The notes under the pieces are model-generated. The model searched no databases and had not been told where the DNA came from. It worked only from the letters and a program-made list of their open reading frames with translations. A program made the position numbers and the translations under genes. Shown piece by piece: positions 12,348 to 27,014 of a stretch of 64,000 nucleotides of DNA (position 1 is the first letter of the stretch; each line of letters opens with the position of its first letter). The stretch comes from Clostridia bacterium (GTDB lineage Bacteria > Bacillota > Clostridia > Christensenellales > CAG-1252). The stretch lies in assembly GCA_024685775.1 (NCBI GenBank), contig JAIKVL010000033.1, positions 7,908-71,907 of the forward strand. The letters are read 5' to 3'.

Positions 12348-15300
12348 TTACAGCGCGCGGATGCTTTCGACCGGAGATTTCTTCGCCGCGAAGAAGACGG
12401 GAAGGAATGTCGCGAGAACGGAAATGAAGATCGAGACTCCGAAGATCAAAGCGACGTTGATCGGTCCGAAATTCAAAAGCTGCATCGAGACCGCATCGAC
12501 CAGCGACCGATTCAGGAAGAAGCAGACGATAAACGATCCGACCGACGCGAGAATAAAGCAAATAAACGCGATGATGAACGCTTCCGCGTAGAAAATCTTG
12601 AAGACGTCCGATCCTCTTGCGCCGACCGCGCGCAGGATCCCGATATCTTTGCGCTTCGCGGAGATCGAAACCGCAATGAAGTTCAAAAGGAACAGCGCGG
12701 CGATCGCACCGACGACCAATCCGACGATCAGGAAAATTTTCTGCAACATTTTGATCATGGAAAGGAACATTTCGAGTTGCTCGTAGACTCTGCTCTCGAC
12801 GCCGTACTTCACGTTGTCGCCCCCTTTCAGCGCAGAAGTGATCTGCGCTTGCGAATTATCCGTCGGAGAGAAAATCAGATTGTACTTCGCATCGTCCGGG
12901 CGAACGTAATCGGTTTTATACGACATACTCCAATGATAGCCGCCGTCTTGATTCATCGTGGCGTGCGCTTCCATCCAAGACTCGGAAATCGCATAATAAG
13001 CGCCGAGGTTTGCGACCGAAGAATCAAAGTAACCCGCGATTTCAAGCGTTCCCGAGGCGTTATACTTGTCGCGGAACCAAAGCGTTCGTACGAAAGAATC
13101 TACGTCGCACGCAAAAACTTTATCGATCTCATCGACGCTTTTCCCTTTTCCCGCGAGGAACGCGTCGACGGCCGCTTTGTACTCTCTGAATTCATCTTCT
13201 CCGCAACTCCGGTTTTTGAGGGAATCGATAACGTTCCACACGATATCGTTATCAAAGATGGATTCGTTAACGTTCCAATAGTATTCAACGATCAAGCCGT
13301 ATACTGTTTGGAGATAATCCGTCTTGAAATCCGAAGAAACGACGGCTTCGATCGCAGCCCAATCCGCGGCGGTCGGCTCGATCGCGTTTTCCGACATATT
13401 CACATAATATTGAATTTTTTCGTAGGCAGCCGAGAAATTTTCCGTAGAATACCCGTTATTCCGAAGAATGGACGCGGCGTCGTACAAATATTTTCTGTAC
13501 ATAAGCTTTTGAAACCAAGTTTGAACGTATCCGACGTACGGCGCGGGATCGGTCGAATTCCAAAAAGCGTTCGTCAAATCGTCGTTGAAAAGCGCGCGCG
13601 CCTCCGGATCGAAAAGCGCATTATCTCGGCAGCGATTGAAATAGTTTGCGAGCGCGTTTTTCAACATCTCGCGATACGTTGAAAAATTCAGATATATTTT
13701 TCCGTCTTCGAAAGAGGGCTCCGCGATCACGGTTCCGTTCGGCGCATAAAAAACGATTTCGCTTTTATGATTGTTGCAAAAACGATCGGTAAAGATCGTT
13801 TCGCCTGCCCACTGTTCGAGGTCTTGATCGTTTCTTTCATTCGAAAATCGGATGCTTTTGAAATAGCGCCCGTCGAGGTTTCTCATATTACTGTTTTTCG
13901 GCATCCGATCCTTATAGGCGTCGTAAAAAGAAGCGCCGACGAAAATCACGGTATTGAAACTGTTTCTCAAATAATCTTCAAAAGAACGTTTCAAATTTTC
14001 TCGGTTTTCCTCGCTGATGGAATTCGGCGAGGTTTTCAAAACGTCGAACTTGAACGGAATCGATTCGACTGAGACGATGCCTTTGATCGTAAACTTGGAA
14101 TCTTCGCCTCGGAAAACATCCCTGCCGCCCGACAAGCGGATGGTTTTCCCGATCAGATCGGAGACGGAATTCACGTTCGCGCCTTCGGTTTCCGCAAAGA
14201 GTTCGGCGAGATACTCGGGAAGCGCGATCTCGTTTTTCGCCGAAGGATATTCCCCGATCAGGCGATACCCGACGGAAGAAAGATACTCCGCGCCGCAATC
14301 GGAAAAACCGAGAGCCGTCGTAACGGAATAAAACGACCGATGGTCCGAACCGACGGAAACGGGAATATAGCTATCTCCCGAAACGAGATCCAAAGTATAG
14401 CCGGAACGCTCGTAATACGAGTAGTCCGAAAAGTCGAAAACGCCCGCGAATTTGAGCCCGTCTTTGCTCTTCGATCCGACTTCGGACGCGCCGAATAACG
14501 TCGTAACGTAGTCCGTGTCGCGATCCATGACTTCTTCATTCCCGGAAGAATCCATGCGAATTTGTTCACACATCACCTTATAGGATTTGCTCAGCGTGAG
14601 CATAGGATAATTCGCTTCTTTCAGCGCTTTGGAAATCGAATAGTTCGAATCGTACAGCATAAAGGTGGAAGCGACACCGAACATGACGAACGCCGCGACC
14701 GATAAAAGGATCGTAAAGATCAAGCGGATCGGCTTGCTTTTGAGACCGCTCGCGCCCATCTTGATCGCGTGCCCCATCGGCAGGCGCGACTTGATAAACT
14801 TCGTCTCTTTTCCGTTATACGCTTTCGTTTCTACGGCGTCGGTCTGCTTAAAGGATTCTTTCGAGCCGTCGTCATTGATCTTGCAGGCGCGCTTTACGTC
14901 TTTGAGCTCGCGCTCCCCTGCCGCGATGATCGCTTCGCCGCCTTTCTTTTTCAAAACTTCCGCGATCTTTTTAATATCCGCATCCGTGATCGCCGCGCCG
15001 TCCTTGACACGGATCGTGTCGTCCATAACGACGACGTTCTCGTCGGAATTTTCGGGTTCGATATAGGTTTTGCTGACGTCCGAAAGGATCTTTCCGTCTT
15101 TCAGTTCGATGATCCTGTCGCCGTAAAACTCCGCGAACTCCCGATCGTGAGAAACGACGATGACGAGTTTGGTTTCGGACAGCTTCTTCAAAGTGTCCAA
15201 GACCTGCTTTCCCGTGTTGGAATCGAGCGCGCCCGTCGGTTCGTCCGCCATAATGATCTCGGGCTGTTTGATAAGAGCGCGCGCGATCGCGACCCTCTGC

Positions 15301-15737
15301 TTCTGACCGCCGGACAAGGTGTTCGGTTTTCTCTTCCCGTACCCCTTCAAATCCACCTGCTCCAAAAGATCGGCGACCGCCTTTTTATCGTTCGGTTTGT
15401 TTTGAAGTTGCAGAGCGAGCGCGATATTCTGCTCGATCGTAAACTCGTTCAAAATGTTGTACTCTTGGAAGACGAATCCGATAAAGGTATTCCGATAGCT
15501 GTCGAAATCCGCTCCGGAGAATTCCTTACTGCTTCGCCCTTTCACGAGGATCTCGCCGCCGTCCGGCTTATCCAAGCCGCCCGCGACGTTCAAAAGCGTC
15601 GATTTACCCGAACCGCTCTTACCGAGCAAAAAGACCATTCCTTTTTCGGGGAACGTTACGGAAACGTCGTCGAGCGCGCGCACTTCGACGCCGCCCTTTC
15701 CTGCGTAGACTTTGGTCAGGTTTTTAACCTCTAACAT
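12348..15737 (-). CDS. Fused ABC transporter: N-terminal ATPase plus FtsX/MacB-type permease with a very large extracytoplasmic domain
   Basis: This is a 1129-aa ORF. It has Walker A GKSGSGKST, signature LSGGQKQR and Walker B IIMADEPT. A TM lies near aa 335-360, about 640 aa of soluble region follows, and three C-terminal TMs are typical of FtsX (…GILRAVGARGSDVFKIF…). Confidence 0.85.
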   Translation of the reverse strand: MLEVKNLTKVYAGKGGVEVRALDDVSVTFPEKGMVFLLGKSGSGKSTLLNVAGGLDKPDGGEILVKGRSSKEFSGADFDSYRNTFIGFVFQEYNILNEFTIEQNIALALQLQNKPNDKKAVADLLEQVDLKGYGKRKPNTLSGGQKQRVAIARALIKQPEIIMADEPTGALDSNTGKQVLDTLKKLSETKLVIVVSHDREFAEFYGDRIIELKDGKILSDVSKTYIEPENSDENVVVMDDTIRVKDGAAITDADIKKIAEVLKKKGGEAIIAAGERELKDVKRACKINDDGSKESFKQTDAVETKAYNGKETKFIKSRLPMGHAIKMGASGLKSKPIRLIFTILLSVAAFVMFGVASTFMLYDSNYSISKALKEANYPMLTLSKSYKVMCEQIRMDSSGNEEVMDRDTDYVTTLFGASEVGSKSKDGLKFAGVFDFSDYSYYERSGYTLDLVSGDSYIPVSVGSDHRSFYSVTTALGFSDCGAEYLSSVGYRLIGEYPSAKNEIALPEYLAELFAETEGANVNSVSDLIGKTIRLSGGRDVFRGEDSKFTIKGIVSVESIPFKFDVLKTSPNSISEENRENLKRSFEDYLRNSFNTVIFVGASFYDAYKDRMPKNSNMRNLDGRYFKSIRFSNERNDQDLEQWAGETIFTDRFCNNHKSEIVFYAPNGTVIAEPSFEDGKIYLNFSTYREMLKNALANYFNRCRDNALFDPEARALFNDDLTNAFWNSTDPAPYVGYVQTWFQKLMYRKYLYDAASILRNNGYSTENFSAAYEKIQYYVNMSENAIEPTAADWAAIEAVVSSDFKTDYLQTVYGLIVEYYWNVNESIFDNDIVWNVIDSLKNRSCGEDEFREYKAAVDAFLAGKGKSVDEIDKVFACDVDSFVRTLWFRDKYNASGTLEIAGYFDSSVANLGAYYAISESWMEAHATMNQDGGYHWSMSYKTDYVRPDDAKYNLIFSPTDNSQAQITSALKGGDNVKYGVESRVYEQLEMFLSMIKMLQKIFLIVGLVVGAIAALFLLNFIAVSISAKRKDIGILRAVGARGSDVFKIFYAEAFIIAFICFILASVGSFIVCFFLNRSLVDAVSMQLLNFGPINVALIFGVSIFISVLATFLPVFFAAKKSPVESIRAL

Positions 15738-15765: not shown

Positions 15766-15794
15766 ATTATATATGATTCTATTCCTTATATCAA
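15766..15794 (-). promoter_or_regulatory. Sigma-70-type promoter for the ABC gene
   Basis: On the minus strand it reads TTGATA (15794-15789), a 17 nt spacer, then TATAAT (15771-15766). The site lies 29 nt upstream of ATG 15737. Confidence 0.6.
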
Positions 15795-15804
15795 TAGGAA
15801 AAAT

Positions 15805-15829
15805 AAAAAAAAGGGAAGAACCCTTCCCC
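15805..15829 (-). terminator. Intrinsic terminator closing the six-gene McrB-like/SipW operon
   Basis: On the minus strand it reads GGGAAG-GGTT-CTTCCC followed by T8. It begins 7 nt after the stop codon at 15836-15838. Confidence 0.8.
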
Positions 15830-15835
15830 TTTTCG

Positions 15836-16588
15836 TTACTTTCTGCGTTTTCTCTGCGCTTCTTCCAGGCGCTTTTTGCTCGCGATATACTCCTCGACGG
15901 CTTTTCTTTTGATCTCGTCCTCTCTCTGCTTGATGAGTTCTTCGGGAGTGAGCTGCTCTTTCTTCAATTCCGCGTCGTCCTTCATCTTGCAAGCGCGCAC
16001 GAAATTGATGATTTGGATGACGAGCAAGCAAAAGAGCGGGACGAAGACGATCAATCCGAAGCCGAGCTTACTGCGGAACGCATTGTAGACGAAGGTCATG
16101 ACGACGGACGTCCGAACGTACTTCCCGATGACGTCGGTATACTCGATCGGTTTATCCGCGATCCCGTAATTCGCGTCGCCGCAGGTCGTCAGTTTCCCGT
16201 CCTCGACGCCTTCGCTTATGATCCTATGCGTAACGATCTTGCCCGAGAGCTCGCCTTTCCCGACGAAGGTAACGATATCTCCCTTTTTGAGTTCGTTTTC
16301 GGAACCCACTTTTTTAACGATAATGACGTCGCCGACGTCCAAAGTCGGGCGCATGGATCCCGAAATAACGGTATAGACCCCGTAACCGAAGAGATTCGGA
16401 CGCTTCGCCGTCTTCACCTGAATGAGCGTAAAGATCACGAACCCGAGCAAAAGAAGCAGAAACACCGTTACGACGGTGCTTACGATCTTTTGGGCGACGG
16501 ACGGCTTTTTTCCGTTCGTTTCTTGTTTTTTAACGCTTTCTTTTTCTTTCATAGTCGCGTAAAGAGACGGCGAACCGTCTCTTCTCAA
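15836..16588 (-). CDS. SipW-type (ER/archaeal-type) signal peptidase I, copy 2, with a charged C-terminal tail
   Basis: It has a TM (VVTVFLLLLLGFVIFTLI), catalytic-region motifs ISGSMRPTLDVGDVIIV, VTHRII and CGDANYGIAD, a second TM, and a K/E-rich tail containing EIKRKAVEEYI. The start is ambiguous: TTG 16588 lies 3 nt after the upstream stop, and ATG 16552 is the alternative. Confidence 0.8.
   Translation of the reverse strand: MRRDGSPSLYATMKEKESVKKQETNGKKPSVAQKIVSTVVTVFLLLLLGFVIFTLIQVKTAKRPNLFGYGVYTVISGSMRPTLDVGDVIIVKKVGSENELKKGDIVTFVGKGELSGKIVTHRIISEGVEDGKLTTCGDANYGIADKPIEYTDVIGKYVRTSVVMTFVYNAFRSKLGFGLIVFVPLFCLLVIQIINFVRACKMKDDAELKKEQLTPEELIKQREDEIKRKAVEEYIASKKRLEEAQRKRRK
16563..16582 (-). 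other. Perfect 8-bp hairpin at the junction between the McrC-like gene and sipW copy 2
   Basis: AGAGACGG-(4 nt loop)-CCGTCTCT lies between the stop at 16592 and ATG 16552. No clear U-tract follows. Confidence 0.5.
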
Positions 16589-16591
16589 TGC

Positions 16592-19228
16592 TTATTTCTT
16601 TTTATCTTTCTTTTTGTCTTTCTCTTTTTTATCCCCGATCACGTCGTGAACGTTCTGCGGCGTTATGGAAAGAGGCGTGTAAGAACGCGGGATAAACGTG
16701 CGGGCGCGGCCGCCGTCCGAGGGATTCGGAGTGACTTCCGAGATCTTCGGCTCTTCTCTCTCGATCGAGTTTTCTTCAAACGAACGCGCATCTTCGGAAG
16801 GCGACGTCGGCGCAAACGGTTTCGGCGCCAAAATATCCTTCGCGGACGGCGTGTAGGGGTTGGGCGCGGCGGGCTTCTTCGATTTGGGCGAGGTCGGAGC
16901 GAAGCTGGTGGCGCCTTGCGCCTTGTTCTCCTCTTCGAGTCTCTTCAACTTCTCTTTGAATTCCGCCTTCTCTTGCGCTTTCTTCGCCTTTTCCTCTTCC
17001 TTCTTCGCTCTCGCTTCTTCTTTCTTTCTGAGCTTGAAGGCTTTTCTCTCCTCTTTCGAAGTCGCGACGTTCTCGCGATCTTCCTCGGGGGTCAGCTTCA
17101 TCGCGGACACGTCCTTGTTGATGAGCTTCTCGTCCACGTTCAATTCGTCGATAAAGCTCCAATCGTCCTCCGCGGTCGGGAGCTCTTCTTCCTCTTCTTC
17201 TTGGGGCGCTTCTTCGGGTTCGGGCTCGGGCTCTTCCTCGGGAACGAAGTCGAAGACGACCTCTTCCGCGTTCTGACCGAGCTCCGTATAGCCGATATCG
17301 CCGACTTCGGGCGTAGGCGCGACCGCCTCTTCCTTCTCTTTTTCAAGCTCTTCCGGCGTAAGTTTATCGTTCAGAATCTCGTTGATCTGTTCCTTTCCGT
17401 AGGTCAGGACGTTGACGTCTTCCGCCTCCATCGCGTCGGCGCGCTCTTCTTCGGTCGCGGTCACGCTGTCGAAGTTAATGAGCTGCGCAAGCTCTTCCAT
17501 ATCGATAATCGCCTGCTTTTGCTGGGCTTCCATATCGGCGTAGTGCGTGCTGATGAGCTCCTGCATCGTGTGCTCTTGCTCGCGGCGCATTTCCTCGATC
17601 CTGCGGATCTCTTTTTTACGAAGCAATAACAGCGCTTCGCCTTCGATCGGAGCGATATAGGTCATCGTCTTTTCGCGTTCGAGCTGCTCGGCGAGAAGTT
17701 GCTTTTCGGTCGCCATACGCTCTTCTTCCGAGCGTTGGATCGCAAGCAGTCTTTCCTTTTCCGCGGCGAGGCGCTTCTCCATTTCCGCTTCTTCTTTGCA
17801 GAGGCGCAAACGCATGAGTCTTTCTTCCGCGCGAACGATGCGATCGTGCATCTCTTTCTTTTCGCGTTTGATGCGCTCTTGTTCTTCCTTCTGCGCGAGC
17901 TTCATCGCCTTTTCCGCTTCTTTCTCCGCGCGGATACGCTCTCTTTCTTCGGCTTTGCGGCGTTTTTCTGCGTCCTTCGCGTCCTTCTCCGCCTGCCTGA
18001 GCGCTTCGAGTTTAAGCTCGGCTTCCTCTTTGAGCTGTTGCTTCAACAAGGCTTTTTGCCGCGCGCTGTCTTCCTTGGCGGTGTTGATCTTATACTGGCG
18101 AATGACGCGATCCAAAGCCGCGTTCATCTTGCGAACGTCGTCCATTGGGACTTCGCGCTCGCCCGGAACCGTCGTGTACAAACGGCGGATCTCGTGAAGA
18201 TCCATATGGAGCTGCGGGAAATCGTCCGGGACGAAATCGTCGATATTCTTGGTCAGGTATTCGTTCTCGACGTTCTTTTCTTTTTCGAGATCTTTCTCTT
18301 CCACGAGCCCGCCTTCGGCTTTCGCCGCCATCGACTCGATGATAAGAGTGTTCAAATAAATAAGGTCGCGATACTTTTCGGAAACGGAAGGCGAAAGATC
18401 GCGCGTCTCCGTAACCGTTTCGACTTCGAAACCGATCTTGTTATACGATTCGATGAACTGCCAAAGGACCAGAGCTTTTTTGAAGTTCGGGTCTTTCAAG
18501 ATGACGTTCGTACGGGTGATCGGCGGGCGGACCAGCGCGCAACTGACCATTTCCTTCGCGAACGGGCTCGCAAGGAAGCTCGAAACGATGCTGTTGATCC
18601 TTTCCACGCGTTGAACCAACGTTCGGTTGTCGTCCGCGCCCATTAAGTTTTCCACCGGCATATTCGCGGTGGTGGACATTGTGTAGCTGATCGAATTATC
18701 ATTTTTCAGTCCGAAATCGGAAGTAACGTTGACGACGATCTGGTCGCTGTTCGCGTTCGCCTGCTTGATCAAATTAAAGCGGCGGGTAATGAAATCCTTC
18801 GTCTTCAAAAGGAGGGTATAGATAAAACGGTTCTCGTAAATCTCGTACGACTCTTCTTTCGACGTGTTCAGGATTTTACTCGGAATGACCATTCCGTCTT
18901 TGGTAACGGAAGAAATGTAGTTCGTGTGCTGCGCAAGGTGCTTGACGGACTCGACGGAAATACTCCTCGCGAGAGAGATATCGACGATATCTTCTTCGAC
19001 GACGATGAACTTACGCGGGTTACGAACGATCGTGTCGAGCGCGACGATACAATCTTCGAGGGTGTCGATCCAACTCTCGTCGAAGATCTGCTTTTGGAAG
19101 CGCTGCGACACTTGAAAACTATTCTTACCCTGCGCGATATAATCCGAATAATCGGAATAAAAGTCCTCCTGTTTGAGGAGCGTACTCAGGTAATATAGAT
19201 ATTCTTCGTACCTTTTCTTGTCTGCCAT
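16592..19228 (-). CDS. McrC/DUF2357-like N-domain protein with a ~200-aa coiled coil and a Pro/Lys-rich tail; no nuclease motif seen
   Basis: This is an 878-aa ORF starting 20 nt after the McrB-like gene. The N-domain (aa 1-305) has SYEIYENRFIYTLLL and ITRTNVILKDPNFKKALVLWQFI, which resemble the ENRF and YxxLxxW segments of McrC-N/DUF2357 proteins. That judgement is by eye only. Residues 385-580 form an E/K/R heptad-like coiled coil. The rest is acidic, then P/K-rich, and ends in KKEKDKKKDKKK. I found no D...(D/E)xK nuclease core. Confidence 0.55.
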   Translation of the reverse strand: MADKKRYEEYLYYLSTLLKQEDFYSDYSDYIAQGKNSFQVSQRFQKQIFDESWIDTLEDCIVALDTIVRNPRKFIVVEEDIVDISLARSISVESVKHLAQHTNYISSVTKDGMVIPSKILNTSKEESYEIYENRFIYTLLLKTKDFITRRFNLIKQANANSDQIVVNVTSDFGLKNDNSISYTMSTTANMPVENLMGADDNRTLVQRVERINSIVSSFLASPFAKEMVSCALVRPPITRTNVILKDPNFKKALVLWQFIESYNKIGFEVETVTETRDLSPSVSEKYRDLIYLNTLIIESMAAKAEGGLVEEKDLEKEKNVENEYLTKNIDDFVPDDFPQLHMDLHEIRRLYTTVPGEREVPMDDVRKMNAALDRVIRQYKINTAKEDSARQKALLKQQLKEEAELKLEALRQAEKDAKDAEKRRKAEERERIRAEKEAEKAMKLAQKEEQERIKREKKEMHDRIVRAEERLMRLRLCKEEAEMEKRLAAEKERLLAIQRSEEERMATEKQLLAEQLEREKTMTYIAPIEGEALLLLRKKEIRRIEEMRREQEHTMQELISTHYADMEAQQKQAIIDMEELAQLINFDSVTATEEERADAMEAEDVNVLTYGKEQINEILNDKLTPEELEKEKEEAVAPTPEVGDIGYTELGQNAEEVVFDFVPEEEPEPEPEEAPQEEEEEELPTAEDDWSFIDELNVDEKLINKDVSAMKLTPEEDRENVATSKEERKAFKLRKKEEARAKKEEEKAKKAQEKAEFKEKLKRLEEENKAQGATSFAPTSPKSKKPAAPNPYTPSAKDILAPKPFAPTSPSEDARSFEENSIEREEPKISEVTPNPSDGGRARTFIPRSYTPLSITPQNVHDVIGDKKEKDKKKDKKK

Positions 19229-19248: not shown

Positions 19249-20829
19249 TTAGAAGAGTTTCTTCAACCTTTCGAGGTATTCCTTACATTCGGTCATGTTT
19301 TCCTCTCCGAAGTGATCGGAAAGGTATTGGATATAGTCGTCAACCTCGTCGCGGATGTAGGCAAGGTTCAAGGATTCGAATTTACGAAGGATCTTGTTAC
19401 AGAGGACGTAGTCCAAGCCGTCGATCTCCGTTCCGCCGCAAGCGACGTACACGGGGACGAATTCTCTTAATTGCTTAACGATACGGTTACCGAACGCCAA
19501 GCGGAAATGCTCGATAACGTAATCATCCATCTCTTCGAATTTTCTCAGGTTCTCTTCGCTGACCTTATGCTCTTCCTGCGCTTTTGCAAACAGGGATTCG
19601 AGATACTTATAAGACAGCGGCATCATATTCGTCAAAGGCGCGTCGAAAGGCTTCGCCTTGCTGTTGATGTTGATCGGCATACCACGGTCGTAAACCTTAT
19701 CGGAGATCGCGAACGTCGAGTCATCGTTGTTCGCCGTTCCGACGAACCACATGTTTTCCGGCAAACGGAAACGACCTTTTTCAACGTGCTTCGGGTCGGA
19801 AGGCCAACCGCTCGGAACGAGGTCGACGATCCATTGATCACGCGACGGCATTTCGAGAATGGACAACATTTCCGCGAAGTAGTACTCGACACGCGCGATG
19901 TTCATTTCGTCGAGGACGGTCAGATACATATCTTCGTTATAGGTCGCGTCGTACATCGCTTTCAGCGTTTCCGTTTCGTTGAACCTCTTGGTAAATTCGT
20001 TGAAGTATCCGAAGATTTCGGTTCTATCACGCCAAGACGGCTGAACGGAAGCGATCGTCGTCGGGTTGTCGATAAAGTGACCGATACATTCGGGAAGTGA
20101 GGTTTTACCGGTACCGGATATACCTTGCAGGATGATGAGCCTCGTCGTTGCAAGACTTGCGAAGAACAATCGAATGATCTTGGGTTCGTAATAAAGCTTA
20201 CGCCACGGTCTGTCGGGGTTATTCGCCGCGTAATTTCGGAAGGTGTCGCAAAGCTCCGAAAGCGTAAAATCCTTTCGGAATTCGGTATGACGCTGCGAGC
20301 CTTCTTCCGCGTATTGGTTATCGACTTCCGTCAGCTTGTAGAAACGGCTCTCGCCTTCCTTTTTCGCGCTGGACGTGTCTTCGCCTTCGTTTCCTTCCAA
20401 AACGTCGTAGCCTTGATAGCCGATCTTCAAACCGAGGATGCGGTCTTTTTCTTTCGTCAATTTAACGATCTGACCTTTTAAGTTTCCGATCTCGTCCACG
20501 AGGTCTTGATTCAAAACCCTCGAACCGAAGAGTCTTTTGAAGAAACGGACGAGGAAGTAAGCGCCGACGACGACGATCGCAAGAAGAGCGAGAACGACGA
20601 GGATAATGATCACCCAAGCGCCGATCCATTGCCCGGTACTCATCTGCTTCATCGCTTGGAATTTTTCTACGACCGCAATATAGCTGTCTATCGCGAACAA
20701 TTGACGGAACGCGCCGAAGAAACCGCCGTACCAATTAAAACCGGAAATACCGTGCGGTTGCGTATAGAAAAAGCCAAGAAATCCAAAGAAGAATACTTGC
20801 AAAAATTCTTTTATAAAATCAGTAAACAT
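19249..20829 (-). CDS. Membrane-anchored McrB-type AAA+ (AAA_5) GTPase
   Basis: This is a 526-aa ORF with a TM helix WIGAWVIIILVVLALLAIVVVGAYFLVRFF (aa 67-95) and a short coiled coil. Walker A is ILQGISGTGKTS. SVQPSWRDRTEIFGYFNEF compares with McrB vqFHpsYsYeDFveG. Walker B and following, LTVLDEMNIARVEYYFAEMLSILE, compares with lIiDEiNRanlskifGEl..llE. RLPENMWFVGTANNDDSTFAISDKVYDRG compares with f.iP.Nl.iiGTmNtaDrs...lD.AlrRRF and includes the NxxD GTP motif. Confidence 0.75.
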   Translation of the reverse strand: MFTDFIKEFLQVFFFGFLGFFYTQPHGISGFNWYGGFFGAFRQLFAIDSYIAVVEKFQAMKQMSTGQWIGAWVIIILVVLALLAIVVVGAYFLVRFFKRLFGSRVLNQDLVDEIGNLKGQIVKLTKEKDRILGLKIGYQGYDVLEGNEGEDTSSAKKEGESRFYKLTEVDNQYAEEGSQRHTEFRKDFTLSELCDTFRNYAANNPDRPWRKLYYEPKIIRLFFASLATTRLIILQGISGTGKTSLPECIGHFIDNPTTIASVQPSWRDRTEIFGYFNEFTKRFNETETLKAMYDATYNEDMYLTVLDEMNIARVEYYFAEMLSILEMPSRDQWIVDLVPSGWPSDPKHVEKGRFRLPENMWFVGTANNDDSTFAISDKVYDRGMPININSKAKPFDAPLTNMMPLSYKYLESLFAKAQEEHKVSEENLRKFEEMDDYVIEHFRLAFGNRIVKQLREFVPVYVACGGTEIDGLDYVLCNKILRKFESLNLAYIRDEVDDYIQYLSDHFGEENMTECKEYLERLKKLF

Positions 20830-20906: not shown

Positions 20907-21806
20907 TTACGCTTTTGTCTCTTCTCCTTTTTGATCGGAAGCGCCGCCATCTCCCGCAGCGGGGCTGAGCCCCTGACTCTTCAAATACTCTTCGATCGCC
21001 TTGCGCTTGATCGCTTCTTCGTCGATCGATGCGAGAGCCGCCTGCTTCGCGCTTTCCGCCGCCGCCGCTTTCGCCTTCTTCATCTTGTTTTCGACGACGA
21101 TCTGCGCGACCAAATAAATATTATAGATCAGCAACAATCCGAGAGGAATGATGATGACGTAGATGAAATGGTATCCGTCGCGGATCCAAGTCAACGCCGA
21201 ACCGAGTCCGTTGATATGGAACGCATAAACGGCGAGGATATCGCCCGCGAGCTTATCCGCTTCGTCCGGGAGCGGGTTGGCGTCGCCCTGCGTCCTGTAC
21301 TTCTTGACGCCGTCGACGTCTTTGACTTCGATAATTCTGTGCGTTACGAGAATGACTTGACGGCTGTTGTCTTCAAGCATCTTGAACGTCACGATGTCGC
21401 CGACTTTCAGATCGTTCCCGCCTTTTTTCGGGCTCGTCGCGAAAACGAGCGCGCCTTCGGGGAAACTGTCCTTTTTATCCCCGTCCATTGATCCCGTCAA
21501 AACGGGAAGTAACTTCAACCCGACGGGAGAGACCTTGTCGCCCGATTGCGGGTTCAGCATAACGACCAAACAAATGACGATCGCGAGGACGACGAAAGCG
21601 ATCTGCACGGCGAGAACAACCGCGTTCGCGATCCTTTTGCCTTTGCTCATCGGTTTCTTTTCCCTTTCGTCGATTTTTTTCGCCGCAGATTCGACTGCGG
21701 GAGCCGCCTCGACCGTTTCCGCATTTTCTTCGACCGCTTCGGTGACGGGCGTCGCCGCGGTTTCTTCCGTTTCGGTTTCGTTACTCAATTTCTTGTCTTT
21801 TTCCAT
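20907..21806 (-). CDS. SipW-type (ER/archaeal-type) signal peptidase I, copy 1, with an acidic N-extension and a charged C-terminal tail
   Basis: ATG 21806 has GAGGAG 11 nt upstream; the ORF track starts at 21941 inside the previous gene. It has a TM (AVVLAVQIAFVVLAIVICLVVML), the motifs VLTGSM, VGDIVTF, VTHRII and QGDANPLPDE, a second TM, and a tail containing AIKRKAIEEYL. Confidence 0.8.
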   Translation of the reverse strand: MEKDKKLSNETETEETAATPVTEAVEENAETVEAAPAVESAAKKIDEREKKPMSKGKRIANAVVLAVQIAFVVLAIVICLVVMLNPQSGDKVSPVGLKLLPVLTGSMDGDKKDSFPEGALVFATSPKKGGNDLKVGDIVTFKMLEDNSRQVILVTHRIIEVKDVDGVKKYRTQGDANPLPDEADKLAGDILAVYAFHINGLGSALTWIRDGYHFIYVIIIPLGLLLIYNIYLVAQIVVENKMKKAKAAAAESAKQAALASIDEEAIKRKAIEEYLKSQGLSPAAGDGGASDQKGEETKA

Positions 21807-21823: not shown

Positions 21824-22777
21824 TTAGCTTTGGGTGACGAATTCGACCGCAAGTTTGACTTGCCCGCCGAGAATACCTCTTTCGCTGTCTACCGTGCTGG
21901 ACGCGTCGCCGATACACTGCGGATCCTCGCCTTCCAGCCAAATAATGATCGTGTACTTAATGATCTCGCCGGGGTTTAAGGGGAAGAGTTCGCTGTTCAG
22001 GACGTAGCCGCCGCCTTGGAAAGGCTTCGCAAGCCAGACGCCGTCTTCCGCGATCGTTCCTTCCTCAAACGTGAATCCGTTGAAAACGTCGATCGTCTGC
22101 GGTTTGTAATTCTTCCCGGGGACGACTTCTTCCGGAATCACGTTTCCTCCTTCGTCGAGAAGGTTTTTGCCTCTTTGATCGGTCTGCGGCGCGGAGTAGA
22201 CCGAGATCGTTCCGTAGTTCTCGTCCGTCAGATCGGAATCCTTGATGACGAGGACGCGGATCGCTTTATCCATATTCCGCATCGCGCGTTCGATCGAGAT
22301 CATTTCCCGATAGCCGACCGCGCCGGTTCCGCTGTTTTTCAAATAGAACGACGTCGCGATAAAGAAATCCTGCGTGCCTTCGCCCTTGTAGGGACCGTTC
22401 GACTCGTAAATATCTTTAATCTTTCCGTCGATATAGTTGCACAAAGTACTGTTGTCCATATTCTTCGGCGCGGCGACGTCCAAAACGCTGGTCGGGTTCG
22501 TAAACTCGAAGTCCTTGGAAAGAGAGAGCCACGAAGTACCCGTCTGCGAAACGGTAACGCGGAAGTTGTTGTTATCCACGAAACGCATAATCGCGTACGT
22601 TATGCCCGCGAGAAGGGTGACGATAAGCAAGAAGAGCAGAAGAATGATAATGACCGCTCTTCTGCGCGCTTGCCGACGGACGCGTTTGTTTTTGATAACG
22701 TACTCGTTCTCCGCCGCCAATTGCTCCTGAATCAGTTGATCGGGAGTTTTTTCAACGTCACTCTTTGTTTTCGCCAT
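21824..22777 (-). CDS. TasA/camelysin-like (Peptidase_M73-like) secreted beta-rich protein with a signal-anchor
   Basis: This is a 317-aa ORF. A 40-aa charged N-extension precedes the TM/signal segment AVIIILLLFLLIVTLLAGITYAIMRF, which compares with the SipW-type signal ..GGTyAyF. FYLKNSGTGAVGYREMISIE compares with TasA F.F.N.GSL. The C-terminal WLEGEDPQC...GGQVKLAVEFVTQ compares with TasA yQGNSIKLQFSFEATQ. The assignment is by motif only. Confidence 0.5.
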   Translation of the reverse strand: MAKTKSDVEKTPDQLIQEQLAAENEYVIKNKRVRRQARRRAVIIILLLFLLIVTLLAGITYAIMRFVDNNNFRVTVSQTGTSWLSLSKDFEFTNPTSVLDVAAPKNMDNSTLCNYIDGKIKDIYESNGPYKGEGTQDFFIATSFYLKNSGTGAVGYREMISIERAMRNMDKAIRVLVIKDSDLTDENYGTISVYSAPQTDQRGKNLLDEGGNVIPEEVVPGKNYKPQTIDVFNGFTFEEGTIAEDGVWLAKPFQGGGYVLNSELFPLNPGEIIKYTIIIWLEGEDPQCIGDASSTVDSERGILGGQVKLAVEFVTQS

Positions 22778-25571
22778 TGTTCTTTACCTTAGGCACCGGC
22801 TTTATGTTCGTCAGCGCCAAATTGATAATTCTCATCGGGCGCGCGACCGCATCGCCCTGTATGACCTTTACGCCGTGATCGAGAAGGATCCTCGCCTCCT
22901 CTTTATGCTCGCAGTTGATGGACGTCGTTACGATATTCTGAACGTCCGCATACCCCGTTATCATATCGAGGTGAGAAAGCCGCTTGGAGCTGTCGCCGCT
23001 GTAATAGCGGGCGTCCAAACGGAGATAATCGAATTCGTACTCGGTCAAGACGCGCATACTCGCGCTTTCCGCGTTGTCGATCATAATGAGCGCGCCTTGC
23101 GTTTTCAAAGTGTTGATCGCGCTGATGCCGACGTAGCCGACCGCTTCGAGCATCGCGCAGTCGAACGCGAGAATCAGGTTCTTATGCTCGGTCTGCATTT
23201 TGTCGACGAGCTTCGTCAAGGTTTCCTGTTTCAGCAAAAGACGGCAACTGATCTTGACCGCGAAACGAATATCCGGGTTCTCGTTGCAATCCTTTACGAC
23301 GTTGTCGAGCGCGATATAATTCAATTCCTCGATACGGGAGCTGCCCTCCGCGATCGCGAAATACTCCTGCGGGATCATCTTGCCGAGGAATTTATCGTTC
23401 AGGACCTGATACACGTTCAGATACTGGACGACGCCTTCCTCATTGATCGCCGCGTCGTAAAAGAAGACGATCGGAGTCGCGAGCGCCACGCCCGCATTCA
23501 GGGTCTTGGCTTTGCTTCTTTGCAGTTCGAGAAGGTCGCGCGCGGTGAGACCGTCGTCCGGCTTATACCCCTTCGGGACGCCCCAAGCGTCCGTCGCGCC
23601 CATCTGCTCGCGAAGATGCTCGGTCAATTCGCCGTAAACGTCGGCGTACTCTTCCCCTTCGCGTTTTACGAACGGTTTATCCTCTTCGCCTTTGAAGACG
23701 GCGTTTTTGATATACGGGTATTTCTCCGCGAACGGAACGTACGCATAGCGCTTGTTGCGTTCGAGCCCGTTTTCCTTCATCAACTCCGTGATGAGTTTGA
23801 CGGCTGCGTCGCGCTCCTTTTCGTTCTCGATCTTCAAAAGGAGCTTCGTGCCTTCGTAACCGATCTGATCCGAAGCGTCCTTATGCTTATACTTCCGCGT
23901 CGGATATTTTTTCGGATCGAGCGCAAGATAGAGCCTGACGATCTCCGCGACGATCGTAATACGCGCGATCAGCTTTTTGCCCGACTTGAAATTGTCGTTC
24001 TTGACCGTCATTTCGGATTTGACCGTCTTGTAGGACAAAAGCTCGTTTTTGATCTTGCTGTATAAGATCTTGATCGTGTTCGGGCACTGGTGGATCTTGT
24101 TTTCGAGCGTCAGAGGAAGGACGCTTAACGGCTGCGCTTCTTCTTGGACGATTTGGATCTCCTGCTCCGGCTCTTCGGAAAGACCCGCGGCTTTTCTTTC
24201 TTCCGCGCGCTTTTCCTTGATGAGGTTTTGCTCGTCCTTCTCTTCGAGAGAAAGATATTTGCCTTTCGTGTCCAGAACCGCGTCGCTTCTTCTCGGGAAG
24301 TTCGGGAGATAATCCACCGTTTCCGGATTTTCAAGGCGGCTTATATTGAATTTGCCCATCATCAGGGCGAGAAGCTCGATCACGATCGCGAATTCGTCGT
24401 CGTTACGGACGCGAAGCAACATTCTCGCGTCGTCGAAATCGACTTCGGAACGATCCGCCTGCTTATAGCGATCCACGTCGAATTCCACGGGATCGAGCGC
24501 GAAATAGATGCGGGTGAAACCGGCGACGGACAAACGCGCCAAAACCTGCTTCCCGCGACGGAAAACCTCGGTCGCCGTCTGCATTTCCGCCTTGACGCCA
24601 TCATACGCCAAGATCTCGTTTTTGAGCTTGTTGTAATACCTGCGCTCGCGCGTGTCGGCGAGGGCGAGTTTATTTTCGAGGCTGCGCTTCAAAACGGCTT
24701 TGCCGTCTTCGTTCAAAAGCTCGCCTCGCTCGTTATACTTCGGCTCCGCTTTCTTCGCCTCTTCCTTTTCCTGCTCTTGCTTTTCGAGGTACTCCGTTCC
24801 ATCTTCGGCTAAGGTCTCGGCGTTATCCGCGATCTGATCCAAGAGCTCTTGCCTTTCTTCGAAGTTGCCGCCGTAGACGAAGTCGTCCATCGCGCCTTCC
24901 GCCATGAAGGCTTGCATATAGTCGTCGTCCATAACGAAGGCCTCGCCTTCACCGTTTCCTTCCGCGGGAGTCGAAGACGTTTCCTGCGACGCCTCGTTCG
25001 ACGATTCCGCAGACTCGGACTCAGTCGGTTCTTCCTGCGCGCTCATCGCGGGCGCGACGGCAAAAACGACGTCCGAAGGCTCGGCGGACATAATCCCGTC
25101 GTCCATCGCCTGCACTTCGGCGAGAAGCGCGGCTTCTTCTTCGGGATCGAGCGGCGCATCCTGCGACGTCGCGGATTCTTCCGCGGCTTCGGATCCGTCA
25201 ACCGAACTTTCCGCTTCTTCGGGAGCGGGCTCTTCCGTCTCGGTTTGCGGCTCGGTGGGACTTTCCGGCGCCGTCTCTTCGGCGGAGGCTTCGGATCCGA
25301 GATCTTCCGATGCGGGATCGGGGTTCTCGGTCGGTTCCGTTTCTTCTTCGGGGACGAAGGGCGTTACGGCAGTCGCGTCTTCACTGACGGGACGAAAAGA
25401 ATTCGCCCGCTTGGGCGCTTCCGTTTCTTCGGTTAACGCTTTTTGATTCTCGGCGTCGAATTCTTCTCCGTACAAAACGGAGGAATCCTCTTTACGCTTC
25501 TTCTTATCAGTCCGCCATTTGAATGCCAAAGCAACCTCCCGACCAGTGTCAACAACCCAAAAGAATCGCAA
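22758..25571 (-). CDS. Large cytoplasmic protein: acidic IDR, two ~105-aa internal repeats, and a C-terminal degenerate EAL-like domain
   Basis: This is a 937-aa ORF. EAL-like landmarks at aa 698-915 are IPQEYFAIAEGSSRIEELNYIAL (matching P.eFi..AE..g.I), AVKIS (for VNlS), LAFDCAM (for lEiTE), LIMIDNAESAS (for alDDFGtG), YLRLD (for lKiD), VTTSINCE (for vAEGVE) and VIQGDAVARPM (for QGy.f.rP). The start is uncertain. It is either TTG 25571 or TTG 25529, which lies 5 nt after GGGAGG. Confidence 0.7.
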   Translation of the reverse strand: MRFFWVVDTGREVALAFKWRTDKKKRKEDSSVLYGEEFDAENQKALTEETEAPKRANSFRPVSEDATAVTPFVPEEETEPTENPDPASEDLGSEASAEETAPESPTEPQTETEEPAPEEAESSVDGSEAAEESATSQDAPLDPEEEAALLAEVQAMDDGIMSAEPSDVVFAVAPAMSAQEEPTESESAESSNEASQETSSTPAEGNGEGEAFVMDDDYMQAFMAEGAMDDFVYGGNFEERQELLDQIADNAETLAEDGTEYLEKQEQEKEEAKKAEPKYNERGELLNEDGKAVLKRSLENKLALADTRERRYYNKLKNEILAYDGVKAEMQTATEVFRRGKQVLARLSVAGFTRIYFALDPVEFDVDRYKQADRSEVDFDDARMLLRVRNDDEFAIVIELLALMMGKFNISRLENPETVDYLPNFPRRSDAVLDTKGKYLSLEEKDEQNLIKEKRAEERKAAGLSEEPEQEIQIVQEEAQPLSVLPLTLENKIHQCPNTIKILYSKIKNELLSYKTVKSEMTVKNDNFKSGKKLIARITIVAEIVRLYLALDPKKYPTRKYKHKDASDQIGYEGTKLLLKIENEKERDAAVKLITELMKENGLERNKRYAYVPFAEKYPYIKNAVFKGEEDKPFVKREGEEYADVYGELTEHLREQMGATDAWGVPKGYKPDDGLTARDLLELQRSKAKTLNAGVALATPIVFFYDAAINEEGVVQYLNVYQVLNDKFLGKMIPQEYFAIAEGSSRIEELNYIALDNVVKDCNENPDIRFAVKISCRLLLKQETLTKLVDKMQTEHKNLILAFDCAMLEAVGYVGISAINTLKTQGALIMIDNAESASMRVLTEYEFDYLRLDARYYSGDSSKRLSHLDMITGYADVQNIVTTSINCEHKEEARILLDHGVKVIQGDAVARPMRIINLALTNIKPVPKVKNNGENKE

Positions 25572-25767: not shown

Positions 25768-25879
25768 GTTGCTAATTCCTGTAAAAATCCAGCTTTTTCG
25801 GGACATTTCGACTTATGTTAGAGCAAATTTACAAGAATGTATAAATGCGGTTACAAAATGACGGAAAAACTCACCCCTA

Positions 25880-25908
25880 TTGAATTTTCTTCTTTTATTT
25901 GGTATAAT
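25880..25908 (+). promoter_or_regulatory. Sigma-70-type promoter for the 25933 membrane-protein gene
   Basis: It reads TTGAAT (25880-25885), a 17 nt spacer, then TATAAT (25903-25908). The TGG preceding the -10 makes it an extended -10. Confidence 0.6.
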
Positions 25909-25932
25909 ATTTTTCACAAAGGAGGTACGTTT

Positions 25933-26424
25933 ATGGACAATCCCATCGGAGAAAAAGAAGCGCTCGCCGCCGAAGCGGAAACGAAAAACGCGGAAGTTGT
26001 CGCAGATCCGATCGAAGAGCCGACCCCGCAAAATCTTCTTTCCGAAAACGCGCTTTGCGCCGTTAAAAAGGGACCGAAAAAAGCAAGTTACGTCTTTTTC
26101 GTGCTTGCCGTTTTGACCTTTATTCCGTTCATTTTTCTGACGATGCCGTTCTTGGGCGCCTTCTTTGACAGCTCGCCCGAGGACCTCGGCGAAGCGCTCG
26201 GAAAAGTCTTCGGGCTGCTCTTCGTGATCATCTTTATGGCCATCACGGGGATCCCGAATTTCATCTTTTCTTTGCTCTCCACGATCTTTTTCGGGACGGC
26301 GATCGGAAAGACGGATCCCAAGCGCAAGGTGAAAACCATCGTCTTTTTCGCGATCTCGCTCGCGCTTTTGATCGCCGTCGTTACGATCGCGCTGATCAGT
26401 TTCATCGTCATAAAAAGGAACTGA
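25933..26424 (+). CDS. Four-TM membrane protein, unknown function
   Basis: ATG 25933 is preceded by AAGGAGGT. The translation is MDNPIGEKEALAAEAETKNAE... followed by four hydrophobic helices. The ORF track starts earlier, at 25837. Confidence 0.65.
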   Translation: MDNPIGEKEALAAEAETKNAEVVADPIEEPTPQNLLSENALCAVKKGPKKASYVFFVLAVLTFIPFIFLTMPFLGAFFDSSPEDLGEALGKVFGLLFVIIFMAITGIPNFIFSLLSTIFFGTAIGKTDPKRKVKTIVFFAISLALLIAVVTIALISFIVIKRN

Positions 26425-26451
26425 ACCGGTCGATCCTTCCAAACACAGCAT

Positions 26452-26489
26452 AAAAAAATCGCTCGCAATATGCGAGCGATTTTTCTTTG
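26452..26489. terminator. Bidirectional intrinsic terminator (end of the ribosomal alpha operon and of the 25933 gene)
   Basis: It has a 10-bp perfect stem ATCGCTCGCA-ATA-TGCGAGCGAT, flanked by A7 on the left and T-rich sequence on the right. Confidence 0.85.
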
Positions 26490-26504
26490 TTAAACGTTTT
26501 CCGA

Positions 26505-27014
26505 TCAAAGCATCTCGATGATCGCCATTTCCGCGGCGTCGCCTTTTCTTTGACCGAGCCTAAGGATGCGGGTATATCCGCCGCCTTGGGTCTGTTTGTC
26601 GTTGCGCTCTTTATACTTCGGAGCGTACTCGTTGAAGATCTTCTCGATCAAAGGATGATTGATGTCCTTCGTCCTCGCAGCGTACTTGCTCTTGCTCTCT
26701 TTCTCGCCCTTCTTCTCTTGAATATCGTAAAGCTCAGCCATCAAACGACGCCTTGCCGCGAGCTTTTTCGGACCGTCGTTCGTAAATTTGACGGACACTT
26801 TCTCGTCTTTGAGGTTGACTTTTTCTTTGACAACTTCAACGGTGTCTTGATAGGTGTTGATAGCGAGAGTGAGAAGTTTTTCAGCCATACGACTTACCTC
26901 TTTGGCGCGGTCGAAGGTGATCTCGATCTTTCCGTACCACAAAAGGTCGGAAACTTCGTTCTTCAACATCGCCATACGTTGGTCTGTCGGTCTTCCTAAT
27001 TTTCTTTGATTCAT
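26505..27014 (-). CDS. rplQ: 50S ribosomal protein L17 (with an internal insertion)
   Basis: MNQRKLGRPTDQRMAMLKN...GGYTRILRLGQRKGDAAEMAIIE. It is the last gene of the alpha operon. Confidence 0.95.
   Translation of the reverse strand: MNQRKLGRPTDQRMAMLKNEVSDLLWYGKIEITFDRAKEVSRMAEKLLTLAINTYQDTVEVVKEKVNLKDEKVSVKFTNDGPKKLAARRRLMAELYDIQEKKGEKESKSKYAARTKDINHPLIEKIFNEYAPKYKERNDKQTQGGGYTRILRLGQRKGDAAEMAIIEML

Follow-up and report, generated by a model that had tools for sequence, protein, structure and literature searches.

Organization of the locus

The subject of this analysis is a McrC-like gene of a Clostridia bacterium (order Christensenellales), which lies on the reverse strand of a 64,000-nt stretch of contig JAIKVL010000033.1 (positions 7,908 to 71,907), hereafter called the window. 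Its product, a nuclease-less protein of 878 amino acids (aa) that carries a DUF2357 domain, is encoded by an intact open reading frame (ORF) beginning 20 nt after the end of a McrB-like gene (at 19249), with a purine-rich AAGGGA/TAGGGA stretch ahead of the ATG. Both genes belong to an operon whose order is degenerate EAL protein, TasA-like protein, SipW-type signal peptidase, McrB-like protein, McrC-like protein, and second SipW-type peptidase. A first-pass annotation, made from the bare sequence, had put the gene in the McrC position at this same distance of 20 nt. The peptides quoted there are all found in the translation where it had placed them, these being SYEIYENRFIYTLLL at aa 127-141, ITRTNVILKDPNFKKALVLWQFI at aa 237-259, the acidic run PEEEPEPEPEEAPQEEEEEE at about aa 663-682, and the C-terminal end KKEKDKKKDKKK, and its arithmetic for the nucleotide ranges of the sub-regions is correct.

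A scan for hydrophobic segments revealed no transmembrane segment in the McrC-like protein, which is therefore predicted to be cytoplasmic. On the opposite strand, two long antisense ORFs (15773-17629, 618 aa, and 17699-18646, 315 aa, both on the plus strand) overlie this gene and that of the second SipW-type peptidase; these are probably by-products of a GAA/AAG-rich coding strand with an AT skew of -0.31.

The N-terminal DUF2357 module

When aa 1-330 were compared alone with Pfam, they matched PF09823 (DUF2357) at E=4.6e-8 with 33 bits, the gathering cutoff being 23.3, and five other members of the family reached 31-40 bits against the same profile. Judged by these sequence scores, the similarity to DUF2357 exceeds chance. 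The full-length 878-aa protein gave zero Pfam matches, presumably because its C-terminal half is of low complexity. DUF2357 has been handled as the N-terminal domain of McrC by Bell et al. (2024; PMC11090510). A tblastn search against plasmids added four remote relatives with 21-23% identity over aa 39-288 and E-values down to 8e-8, two of which are annotated as DUF2357 and two as hypothetical. Both the Pfam match and the annotations of these remote relatives agree with the McrC-N/DUF2357-like character that had been proposed for the N-domain at the outset. In the two plasmid relatives that were inspected (H1 and H2), the DUF2357 gene stands directly after a gene for an AAA ATPase of 788-800 aa.

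The conserved N-terminal module had initially been drawn as about 305 aa, and while such a module is indeed present, its boundary falls at about aa 385 and takes in a helical bundle, an extension, and a neck with the conserved pattern DDFP...E(V/I)R...A(L/I)DRV at aa 335-375. Within the module, the stretch aa 58-163, which aligns to positions 90-196 of the 251 in the DUF2357 profile, is the most conserved part. In fact, an alignment of 46 sequences gave 57 invariant columns, 41 of which fall within aa 53-150. The AlphaFold2 model of aa 1-385 has a mean predicted local distance difference test (pLDDT) score of 71.9 and a predicted template modelling score (pTM) of 0.49, and is least confident at aa 75-125. 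The most conserved stretch is thus also the worst modelled, a pattern that would be expected of a partner-binding extension. By analogy with the published description of DUF2357 (PMC11090510), aa 58-163 may be the extension that contacts the McrB ring.

Among the nearest relatives outside the family, we noticed two plasmid-borne pairs of an AAA ATPase and a DUF2357 protein, one on a Rhodoferax plasmid (NZ_CP019242.1, 2356-6545; L086) and the other on a Deinococcus plasmid (NZ_CP044987.1, 2227-6755; L087). In both, the ATPase is about 800 aa long with a GTANHDETT signature, the DUF2357 protein has 608-705 aa, and another large AAA-domain protein precedes the pair. These are probably CoCoNuT-type systems.

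Search for a nuclease

Searches of the McrC-like protein against Pfam, PADLOC, and NCBIfam revealed no PDDEXK, McrBC, HNH, or other nuclease family, and from PADLOC and NCBIfam it matched zero models of any kind. In the AlphaFold2 model, aa 230-385 form helices at 247-261, 280-306, 311-326, 345-351, and 362-384 together with one strand region at 267-277, and a four-stranded alpha/beta core is absent. Moreover, none of the Foldseek matches of the aa 1-385 model in the PDB and BFVD is a nuclease, and the conserved residues of aa 230-385 (VRPPITRTNVILK, FKKAL.LWQ, DDFP, and A.DR) contain no D...(D/E)xK pattern. The remaining 490 residues consist of charged helix and low-complexity sequence. Zero nuclease matches were likewise obtained when the other conserved proteins of the operon were compared with Pfam, PADLOC, and NCBIfam. 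The lack of a recognizable nuclease, as first reported for this gene, is thereby borne out by the family databases, the model, and Foldseek; an intact nuclease fold in aa 230-380, which had been named beforehand as the finding that would speak against such a protein, was looked for in the model and is absent.

The charged C-terminal half

The C-terminal half begins with a helical region rich in E, K, R, A, and L, in which aa 385-580 are 50% charged and contain 1% Pro and Gly together. For heptad periodicity we used a register-optimized score of a/d hydrophobicity against the shuffled sequence, a crude test with a tropomyosin sequence as the control, and this gave z=0.2 for aa 385-580 and z=9.5 for tropomyosin. 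Across the extensions of 75 homologues, the median z was 0.44, with 9 of the 75 above 2. Pairs of opposite charge at i/i+3 and i/i+4, on the other hand, are enriched (z=2.2 in the window; median of 3.05 in the homologues, 56 of the 75 exceeding 2). Because the a/d periodicity is that of shuffled sequences while the i/i+3 and i/i+4 charge pairing is enriched, aa 386-580 look like an ER/K single alpha-helix (SAH) rather than a canonical coiled coil, and the heptad coiled coil that the first-pass annotation had assigned to aa ~385-580 is not upheld. Short sub-windows at aa 455-482 and 553-580 could still pair. As one helix, the 196 residues of aa 385-580 at 0.15 nm each would span about 29 nm. 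Against PDB sequences, phmmer and the family profile gave an irrelevant immunity-protein match (E=0.04) and non-significant matches to long charged-helix or otherwise helical proteins (best E=0.11), with myosin VI at the top and zuotin and V-ATPase subunit G also among them.

Next follows an acidic segment (aa 581-700) of net charge -38, with a PEPEPE/poly-E run and a DDWSFID motif, and over residues 571-700 close relatives of the window's protein are 74-83% identical. The last part (aa 701-878) comprises a second K/E-rich helix at about aa 720-770, a Pro/Lys-rich tail (13-15% Pro and 14-15% Lys in aa 761-878), and a polybasic C-terminus. The composition earlier described for this region, an acidic segment followed by a P/K-rich tail, is thus correct, but the tail is not featureless. 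Its clade-conserved islands, with the poly-Lys end coming after them, are DDWSFID, EDRENVA, KRLEEENK, SFAPT, NPYTPSA..IL.PK, and RPRTFIPRSYTPISITPENVHDVLGD, and the C-terminal motif of the protein reads RTFIPRSYTPISITPENVHDVLGD.

Since the region is of low complexity with a strong AT skew, and is overlain by the long antisense ORFs, we considered whether the C-terminal half might be an annotation artefact, i.e., whether a shorter DUF2357 gene had been lengthened by a frameshift fusion or by spurious low-complexity sequence. In five species-level relatives, however, the ORF runs without interruption for 864-895 aa and shows conserved islands up to the last 40 residues, and the representative of the 50%-identity cluster is 879 aa long. 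Moreover, all 76 of the 76 complete homologues carry a charged extension (141-601 aa, 37-55% charged), most of which terminate in a K/R run. We give the artefact next to no chance, and the conserved length and C-terminal motifs rule it out.

The McrB-like partner

The 526-aa McrB-like protein matched the PADLOC model PDC-M26A (2.6e-37), the NCBIfam McrB family (2.9e-6), and the solved structure of Escherichia coli McrB (1.8e-6). Its Walker A (GISGTGKTS), Walker B (LDEMN), and PEN...N signature motifs were all aligned to references. The N-terminus is hydrophobic, a transmembrane segment spans about aa 62-101, and aa 105-135 form a short leucine-zipper-like helix with 3-4 spacing (L110-I114-L117-I121-L124-I131-L134). 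The signature G-T-A-N367-N-D369-D370 (GTANNDDST) is invariant in three distant loci and corresponds to GTANHDETT in the nearest AAA ATPases outside the family, which are 35-37% identical. This fits NxD followed by D/E, the pattern by which Bell et al. define the branch (PMC11090510), although NNDD reads equally well as NxxD, and an ungapped alignment sets D370 under the Asp of E. coli NTAD. By its sequence features, with Walker A, Walker B, and signature motifs intact, the partner belongs to the NxD branch of McrB-type AAA+ proteins and is anchored in the membrane.

Conservation is high, in that the window's protein is 73% identical to its counterpart in L001 (a JGI metagenome contig) and 61% to that in L003 (an Erysipelotrichaceae assembly). 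Across 52 loci, identities are 60-95%, and the last ~130 aa are nearly invariant in different classes. Such sequence conservation is atypical of a defence gene.

Table 1. Coordinates of the genes and protein regions in the window
Feature	Position	Strand	Size and basis
MacB-like fused ABC (ATP-binding cassette) ATPase and FtsX permease, single chain	12348..15737	-	1129 aa; downstream of the operon
SipW-type signal peptidase paralogue 2	15836..16588	-	NCBIfam TIGR02228, 79.2 bits (cutoff 51.85); Pfam Peptidase_S26
McrC-like (DUF2357) nuclease-less gene	16592..19228	-	878 aa; intact ORF and translation, ATG start
McrC-like aa 701-878: second helix, Pro/Lys-rich tail, polybasic end	16595..17128	-	Composition, alignment
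McrC-like aa 581-700: acidic segment	17129..17488	-	Net charge, poly-E run, DDWSFID motif
McrC-like aa 386-580: E/K/R/A/L-rich helical region	17489..18073	-	Composition, periodicity, and charge-pair tests
McrC-like aa 1-385: conserved N-terminal module	18074..19228	-	Pfam, AlphaFold2, alignment, tblastn
McrC-like aa 58-163: DUF2357-aligned stretch	18740..19057	-	Most conserved part; low monomer pLDDT at aa 75-125
McrB-like AAA+ GTPase	19249..20829	-	526 aa; PADLOC, NCBIfam, and PDB matches
SipW-type signal peptidase paralogue 1	20907..21806	-	NCBIfam TIGR02228, 66.6 bits (cutoff 51.85)
Candidate TasA-like protein: basic cytoplasmic N-tail, one transmembrane segment, extracellular beta-sandwich	21824..22777	-	317 aa; AlphaFold2 and Foldseek
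EAL-domain protein, C-terminal EAL	22758..25571	-	937 aa; Pfam EAL, 2.6e-19

Other genes of the operon

Both SipW-type paralogues pass the cutoff of TIGR02228, the family of archaeal-type signal peptidase I, and share GSM, THRI, and GDAN motifs with their orthologues in L001 and L003. We take these motifs to supply the catalytic Ser, His, and Asp, as in SipW, and by sequence both paralogues are apparently active. Each has a C-terminal transmembrane segment that is followed by a cytoplasmic tail motif, EEAIKRKAIEEYL in paralogue 1 and EDEIKRKAVEEYI in paralogue 2. The consensus of these tails, (I/V)KRKA(I/V)EEY(L/I/M), is kept in distant loci from Clostridia to Erysipelotrichaceae (L001, 7468-8235 and 12052-12747; L003, 7419-8354 and 11625-12320), and the motif may be where the cytoplasmic GTPase machine docks. 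As listed, the ORF of paralogue 1 starts at a TTG at 21941, which gives a 118-nt overlap with the upstream gene and adds an Arg-rich leader of 45 aa; the ATG at 21806, 17 nt past the upstream stop, is more likely to be where the gene starts.

The 317-aa protein encoded upstream was modelled by AlphaFold2 with a pLDDT of 80.6 and a pTM of 0.71, and its top Foldseek hit was the TasA fibre (PDB ID: 8aur_A; E=9e-5, probability 0.99), while the archaeal bundling pilus AbpA (PDB ID: 7ueg_A) was matched with a probability of 0.93. No SipW-cognate signal or TasA/camelysin family was found by NCBIfam in the putative fibre subunits, and a profile of the 317-aa protein returned nothing from the PDB sequences, so that its tie to TasA comes from the fold comparison only. 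On the strength of the model, we regard it as a candidate TasA-like fibre subunit and SipW substrate. Its transmembrane segment ends ...G-I-T-Y-A, and its N-tail carries a conserved ENEYVIKNK motif. The cytoplasmic N-tail is unusually long and conserved, and reads ENEYVIKNKRVRR (window, 21824-22777; L001, 5225-6109). At other loci, the operon encodes one to three small proteins with signal peptides ending GT(F/Y)A|W(Y/F) and with W(L/Y)(E/D)G common to their C-termini, one of which also has the Y-x-IKN motif in its N-tail (RENQSYRIKNN in L001). This Y-x-I-K-N motif resembles the YSIRK-type signals of septal secretion.

In the EAL-domain protein, an alignment of the window with L001 (985-3441) and L003 (4065-5204) revealed that the catalytic motifs are replaced alike in all three. 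Against the canonical EAL motifs, EALxR has become YQVLND, NLS has become SCRLL, ExTE has become ILAFDC, DDFGxG has become IDNxE, and KxD has become RLD. A phmmer search of the EAL domain against the PDB returned nothing. With catalytic motifs whose replacement is conserved in the family, the protein is likely to be a non-catalytic sensor of cyclic di-GMP (c-di-GMP) or an adaptor. A repeat of about 75 aa occurs twice within it (around aa 297-372 and 489-563), and its N-terminal third is acidic. Between rplQ and the EAL gene lies a further ORF (25813-26508, minus strand, 231 aa), whose R/D/E/K-rich, low-complexity product has no family match and which is probably not a real gene. Downstream of the operon, the MacB-like ABC/FtsX gene occurs only in close relatives of the window (L008, L009, L011, L012, and L054), and with this confinement the transporter is ruled out as a component of the system.

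Distribution and synteny

Relatives of the N-domain at E<=1e-3 number 2415 in the 90%-identity cluster database and form 1494 clusters at 50% identity; the DUF2357-type domain is always N-terminal, and total lengths are 364-1380 aa. A scan with one genome per species revealed 245 encoding genomes, the hosts being described here from the best 80 of these. All 80 are metagenome assemblies or uncultured isolates and belong to Christensenellales, other Clostridia, Erysipelotrichaceae, and Bacilli, many of them from the rumen or gut, and the closest relative among them is Christensenella sp. UBA4247 with 94% identity. The McrC-like protein had zero matches in phages and, in plasmids, the four remote matches only.

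Among the fetched loci with enough flanking sequence, 52 of 52 have a McrB-like gene on the same strand, no more than 4 kb upstream, and a SipW-type peptidase gene precedes the pair in 48 of 50 and follows it in 60 of 62. Homologues of the 317-aa TasA-like protein are present in 38 of 40 loci, and the EAL protein is upstream in 36 of 37. Gene order and strand are kept across the fetched assemblies of Christensenellales, Erysipelotrichaceae, and Bacilli, and in the window's clade the operon comes directly after rpoA-rplQ.

Comparison with known systems

The arrangement was named CoCoPALM by Bell, Makarova, Wolf, and Koonin (eLife 2024; PMC11090510, section 7), who devoted one paragraph to the class and deferred its analysis to a later paper. 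Their description has an NxD-type McrB GTPase to which an FtsB-like transmembrane and coiled-coil domain is fused, a linkage to signal peptidases, and coiled coils on both the McrB and the McrC homologues (PMC11090510). The window's locus is alike in having an NxD-type McrB GTPase whose N-terminal part holds a transmembrane segment and a short leucine-zipper-like helix, a neighbouring McrC homologue in which DUF2357 is followed by a long helical extension, and signal-peptidase-family genes in the operon of a Bacillota host. Neither the TasA-fold protein, the degenerate EAL protein, the conserved peptidase tails, nor the ER/K-type non-heptad helix is part of that description, and nothing contradicts membership. 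The supplementary files of the CoCoNuT paper contain zero CoCoPALM entries, so the identity of the clade follows from the matching verbal description. By that description, the locus is a member of the named but uncharacterized CoCoPALM class, for which our search of the literature found no follow-up, analysis, or experiment. The opinion in the first-pass annotation that a nuclease-less version in a secretion operon had not been described is hence superseded; its "secretion operon" was right as to the type of context, which can now be refined to a SipW-type signal-peptidase and TasA-like fibre operon.

Like E. coli McrC, the McrC-like gene comes directly after a gene of mcrB type, and the N-module of this class reportedly enters the McrB hexamer, where it stimulates GTP hydrolysis. 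Unlike E. coli McrC, however, the protein lacks PD-(D/E)xK, and no direct match to McrC was detected in sequence or fold. Moreover, its GTPase partner is membrane-anchored without a DNA-binding domain, and its C-terminus is a charged, disordered extension of 490 aa. As a nuclease was looked for and not found, this is not a canonical McrC. With the CnuB/CnuC pair of CoCoNuTs, the locus shares the NxD signature branch, an AAA+ domain that is 35-37% identical to the plasmid relatives, and McrC homologues that are nuclease-less or nuclease-dead with coiled-coil-like additions. According to the published description, though, CoCoNuTs invariably come together with HEPN or other nucleases (PMC11090510), whereas the window's locus has no tandem nuclease and no RNA-binding domains (CSD, YTH), and its context is one of membrane and secretion. 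Because it lacks the tandem nuclease, the locus is not a CoCoNuT.

A SipW-type peptidase together with a TasA-fold subunit is also found in operons of the tapA-sipW-tasA type (Bacillus subtilis TasA, Clostridium perfringens BsaA, and archaeal AbpA). Here, in contrast, the peptidase is present as two paralogues whose cytoplasmic tails are conserved, the subunit has a long, conserved cytoplasmic N-tail, and the operon includes a McrBC-derived GTPase pair and an EAL protein, none being known for TasA or BsaA. In C. perfringens, type IV pilus proteins have been proposed to move oligomers of the TasA-like BsaA past the wall (PMC11580942), which would be a partial precedent for the NTPase-assisted export of a SipW-processed TasA homologue. 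Lastly, with the ER/K SAHs that extend the levers of myosin VI and X, the charged helix shares a content of ~50% charged residues, a near absence of Pro and Gly, an excess of opposite-charge pairs at i/i+3 and i/i+4, and the lack of a hydrophobic heptad seam, although this likeness is a statistical one.

Proposed function and alternative explanations

Our preferred reading, to which we assign a probability of roughly 0.7, is that the gene product serves as the McrC homologue within a CoCoPALM system, this being a nuclease-free, McrBC-derived GTPase machine in an operon for SipW-processed, TasA-like fibres. By analogy with E. coli McrBC, the DUF2357 stretch (aa 58-163) would insert into the ring of the McrB-like hexamer beneath the membrane and stimulate GTP hydrolysis. 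The C-terminal half, to judge from its composition, may stand in for the nuclease with its ~200-aa charged helix, acidic segment, linear motifs, and polybasic end, and could act as a rigid spacer or tether by which a further component is positioned or recruited, for example the membrane surface, the tails that the two peptidases extend into the cytoplasm, or the N-tails of fibre subunits. Such a machine would most likely serve to control or power the export, processing, or assembly of the TasA-like subunit, with a plausible c-di-GMP input through the degenerate EAL protein, and it is unlikely that the machine cleaves nucleic acid. More tentatively, and at rather less than even odds, we envisage the membrane-anchored McrB ring and its McrC plug, stripped of both nuclease and DNA reader, as a cytoplasmic engine or gate for the assembly of TasA-type fibres in Bacillota of the gut and rumen, in which the ER/K helix would serve as a ruler or tether of ~30 nm and the dead EAL as the c-di-GMP control.

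Several observations weigh against this assignment to a fibre-linked CoCoPALM machine. The aa 1-385 model is only moderately confident, and with it Foldseek returned nothing below E=0.04 from the PDB and BFVD, and no solved McrC; this blank is uninformative on McrC homology because the model has moderate confidence and its key segment a low pLDDT. An hhalign comparison of the family profile with E. coli McrC, which belongs to Pfam PF10117 and not to DUF2357, gave zero signal. With both the structural and the hhalign links to E. coli McrC having failed, the tie to McrC runs through DUF2357, the gene position, and the literature. Furthermore, the TM-scores of the TasA match are low (0.26-0.37), a Pfam search of the McrB-like N-terminus gave no DivIC/FtsB match at E<=1, and the PADLOC model matched by the McrB-like protein, PDC-M26A, is one of candidate defence. 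The contact with the hexamer, the stimulation of the GTPase, and the link to fibre assembly are, moreover, ones that we infer.

That last PADLOC match raises the alternative of an antiviral or abortive-infection system, in which a McrBC-derived sensor-motor would act through a non-nuclease effector, such as damage to the membrane or envelope by the peptidases or a secreted protein, and the fibre genes would be either bystanders or the effector. The nearest relatives outside the family are indeed CoCoNuT-like plasmid pairs, and the NxD branch as a whole has been discussed as defence-related (PMC11090510). Yet no nuclease or recognized toxic effector was found in the conserved operon, the McrC-like protein itself matches no PADLOC model, and there are no phage matches and essentially none on plasmids. 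The McrB-like protein is also unusually conserved, the synteny is fixed across classes, and in the window's clade the operon has its place directly after rpoA-rplQ, all of which makes a defence role improbable in our estimation. A slightly smaller chance still goes to a structural system of the divisome or envelope, whereby the FtsB-like anchor would set the GTPase ring at the septum, and the charged helix, like TolA domain II, would serve septal secretion or envelope integrity in general, and not fibre assembly in particular. The succession of a transmembrane segment and a short leucine zipper in the McrB-like protein, as in FtsB/DivIC (PMC11090510), and the Y-x-I-K-N motif in the N-tails of the fibre subunits, with its resemblance to YSIRK, are in keeping with a septal role. 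One partial orthologue has also been named a TolA-like cell-envelope integrity protein by NCBI, although this name most likely reflects charged, low-complexity sequence. Against the septum, however, stand the missing sequence match to the DivIC/FtsB or TolA families and the lack of conserved divisome genes in the operon, and the TasA-like protein and SipW-type peptidases, with their tight linkage to the pair, form the more specific association.

Significance

McrBC is the textbook DNA restriction machine. Under the preferred reading as a CoCoPALM machine for fibres, the locus is a clean example of the McrBC core, a GTPase ring with its activating plug, being reused without a nuclease. This takes place in a chromosomal operon of strict synteny for secreted TasA-like fibres, and the hosts are gut and rumen Firmicutes that are abundant yet little studied. 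What is new beyond the published description of the class is a TasA-fold protein with a cytoplasmic N-tail, two SipW paralogues that share a tail motif, a degenerate EAL protein, and an ER/K-type helix, together with the clade-conserved motifs and polybasic end of the McrC-like tail and the conservation of the operon across the fetched assemblies. The value of the locus lies not in a first sighting but in this anatomy, which yields testable hypotheses on how a defence motor could have been domesticated for cell-surface biogenesis. If the more tentative reading as an engine or gate were true, there would be a previously unknown pathway, driven by nucleoside triphosphates, for a class of fibres that is thought to assemble without cytoplasmic energy input.

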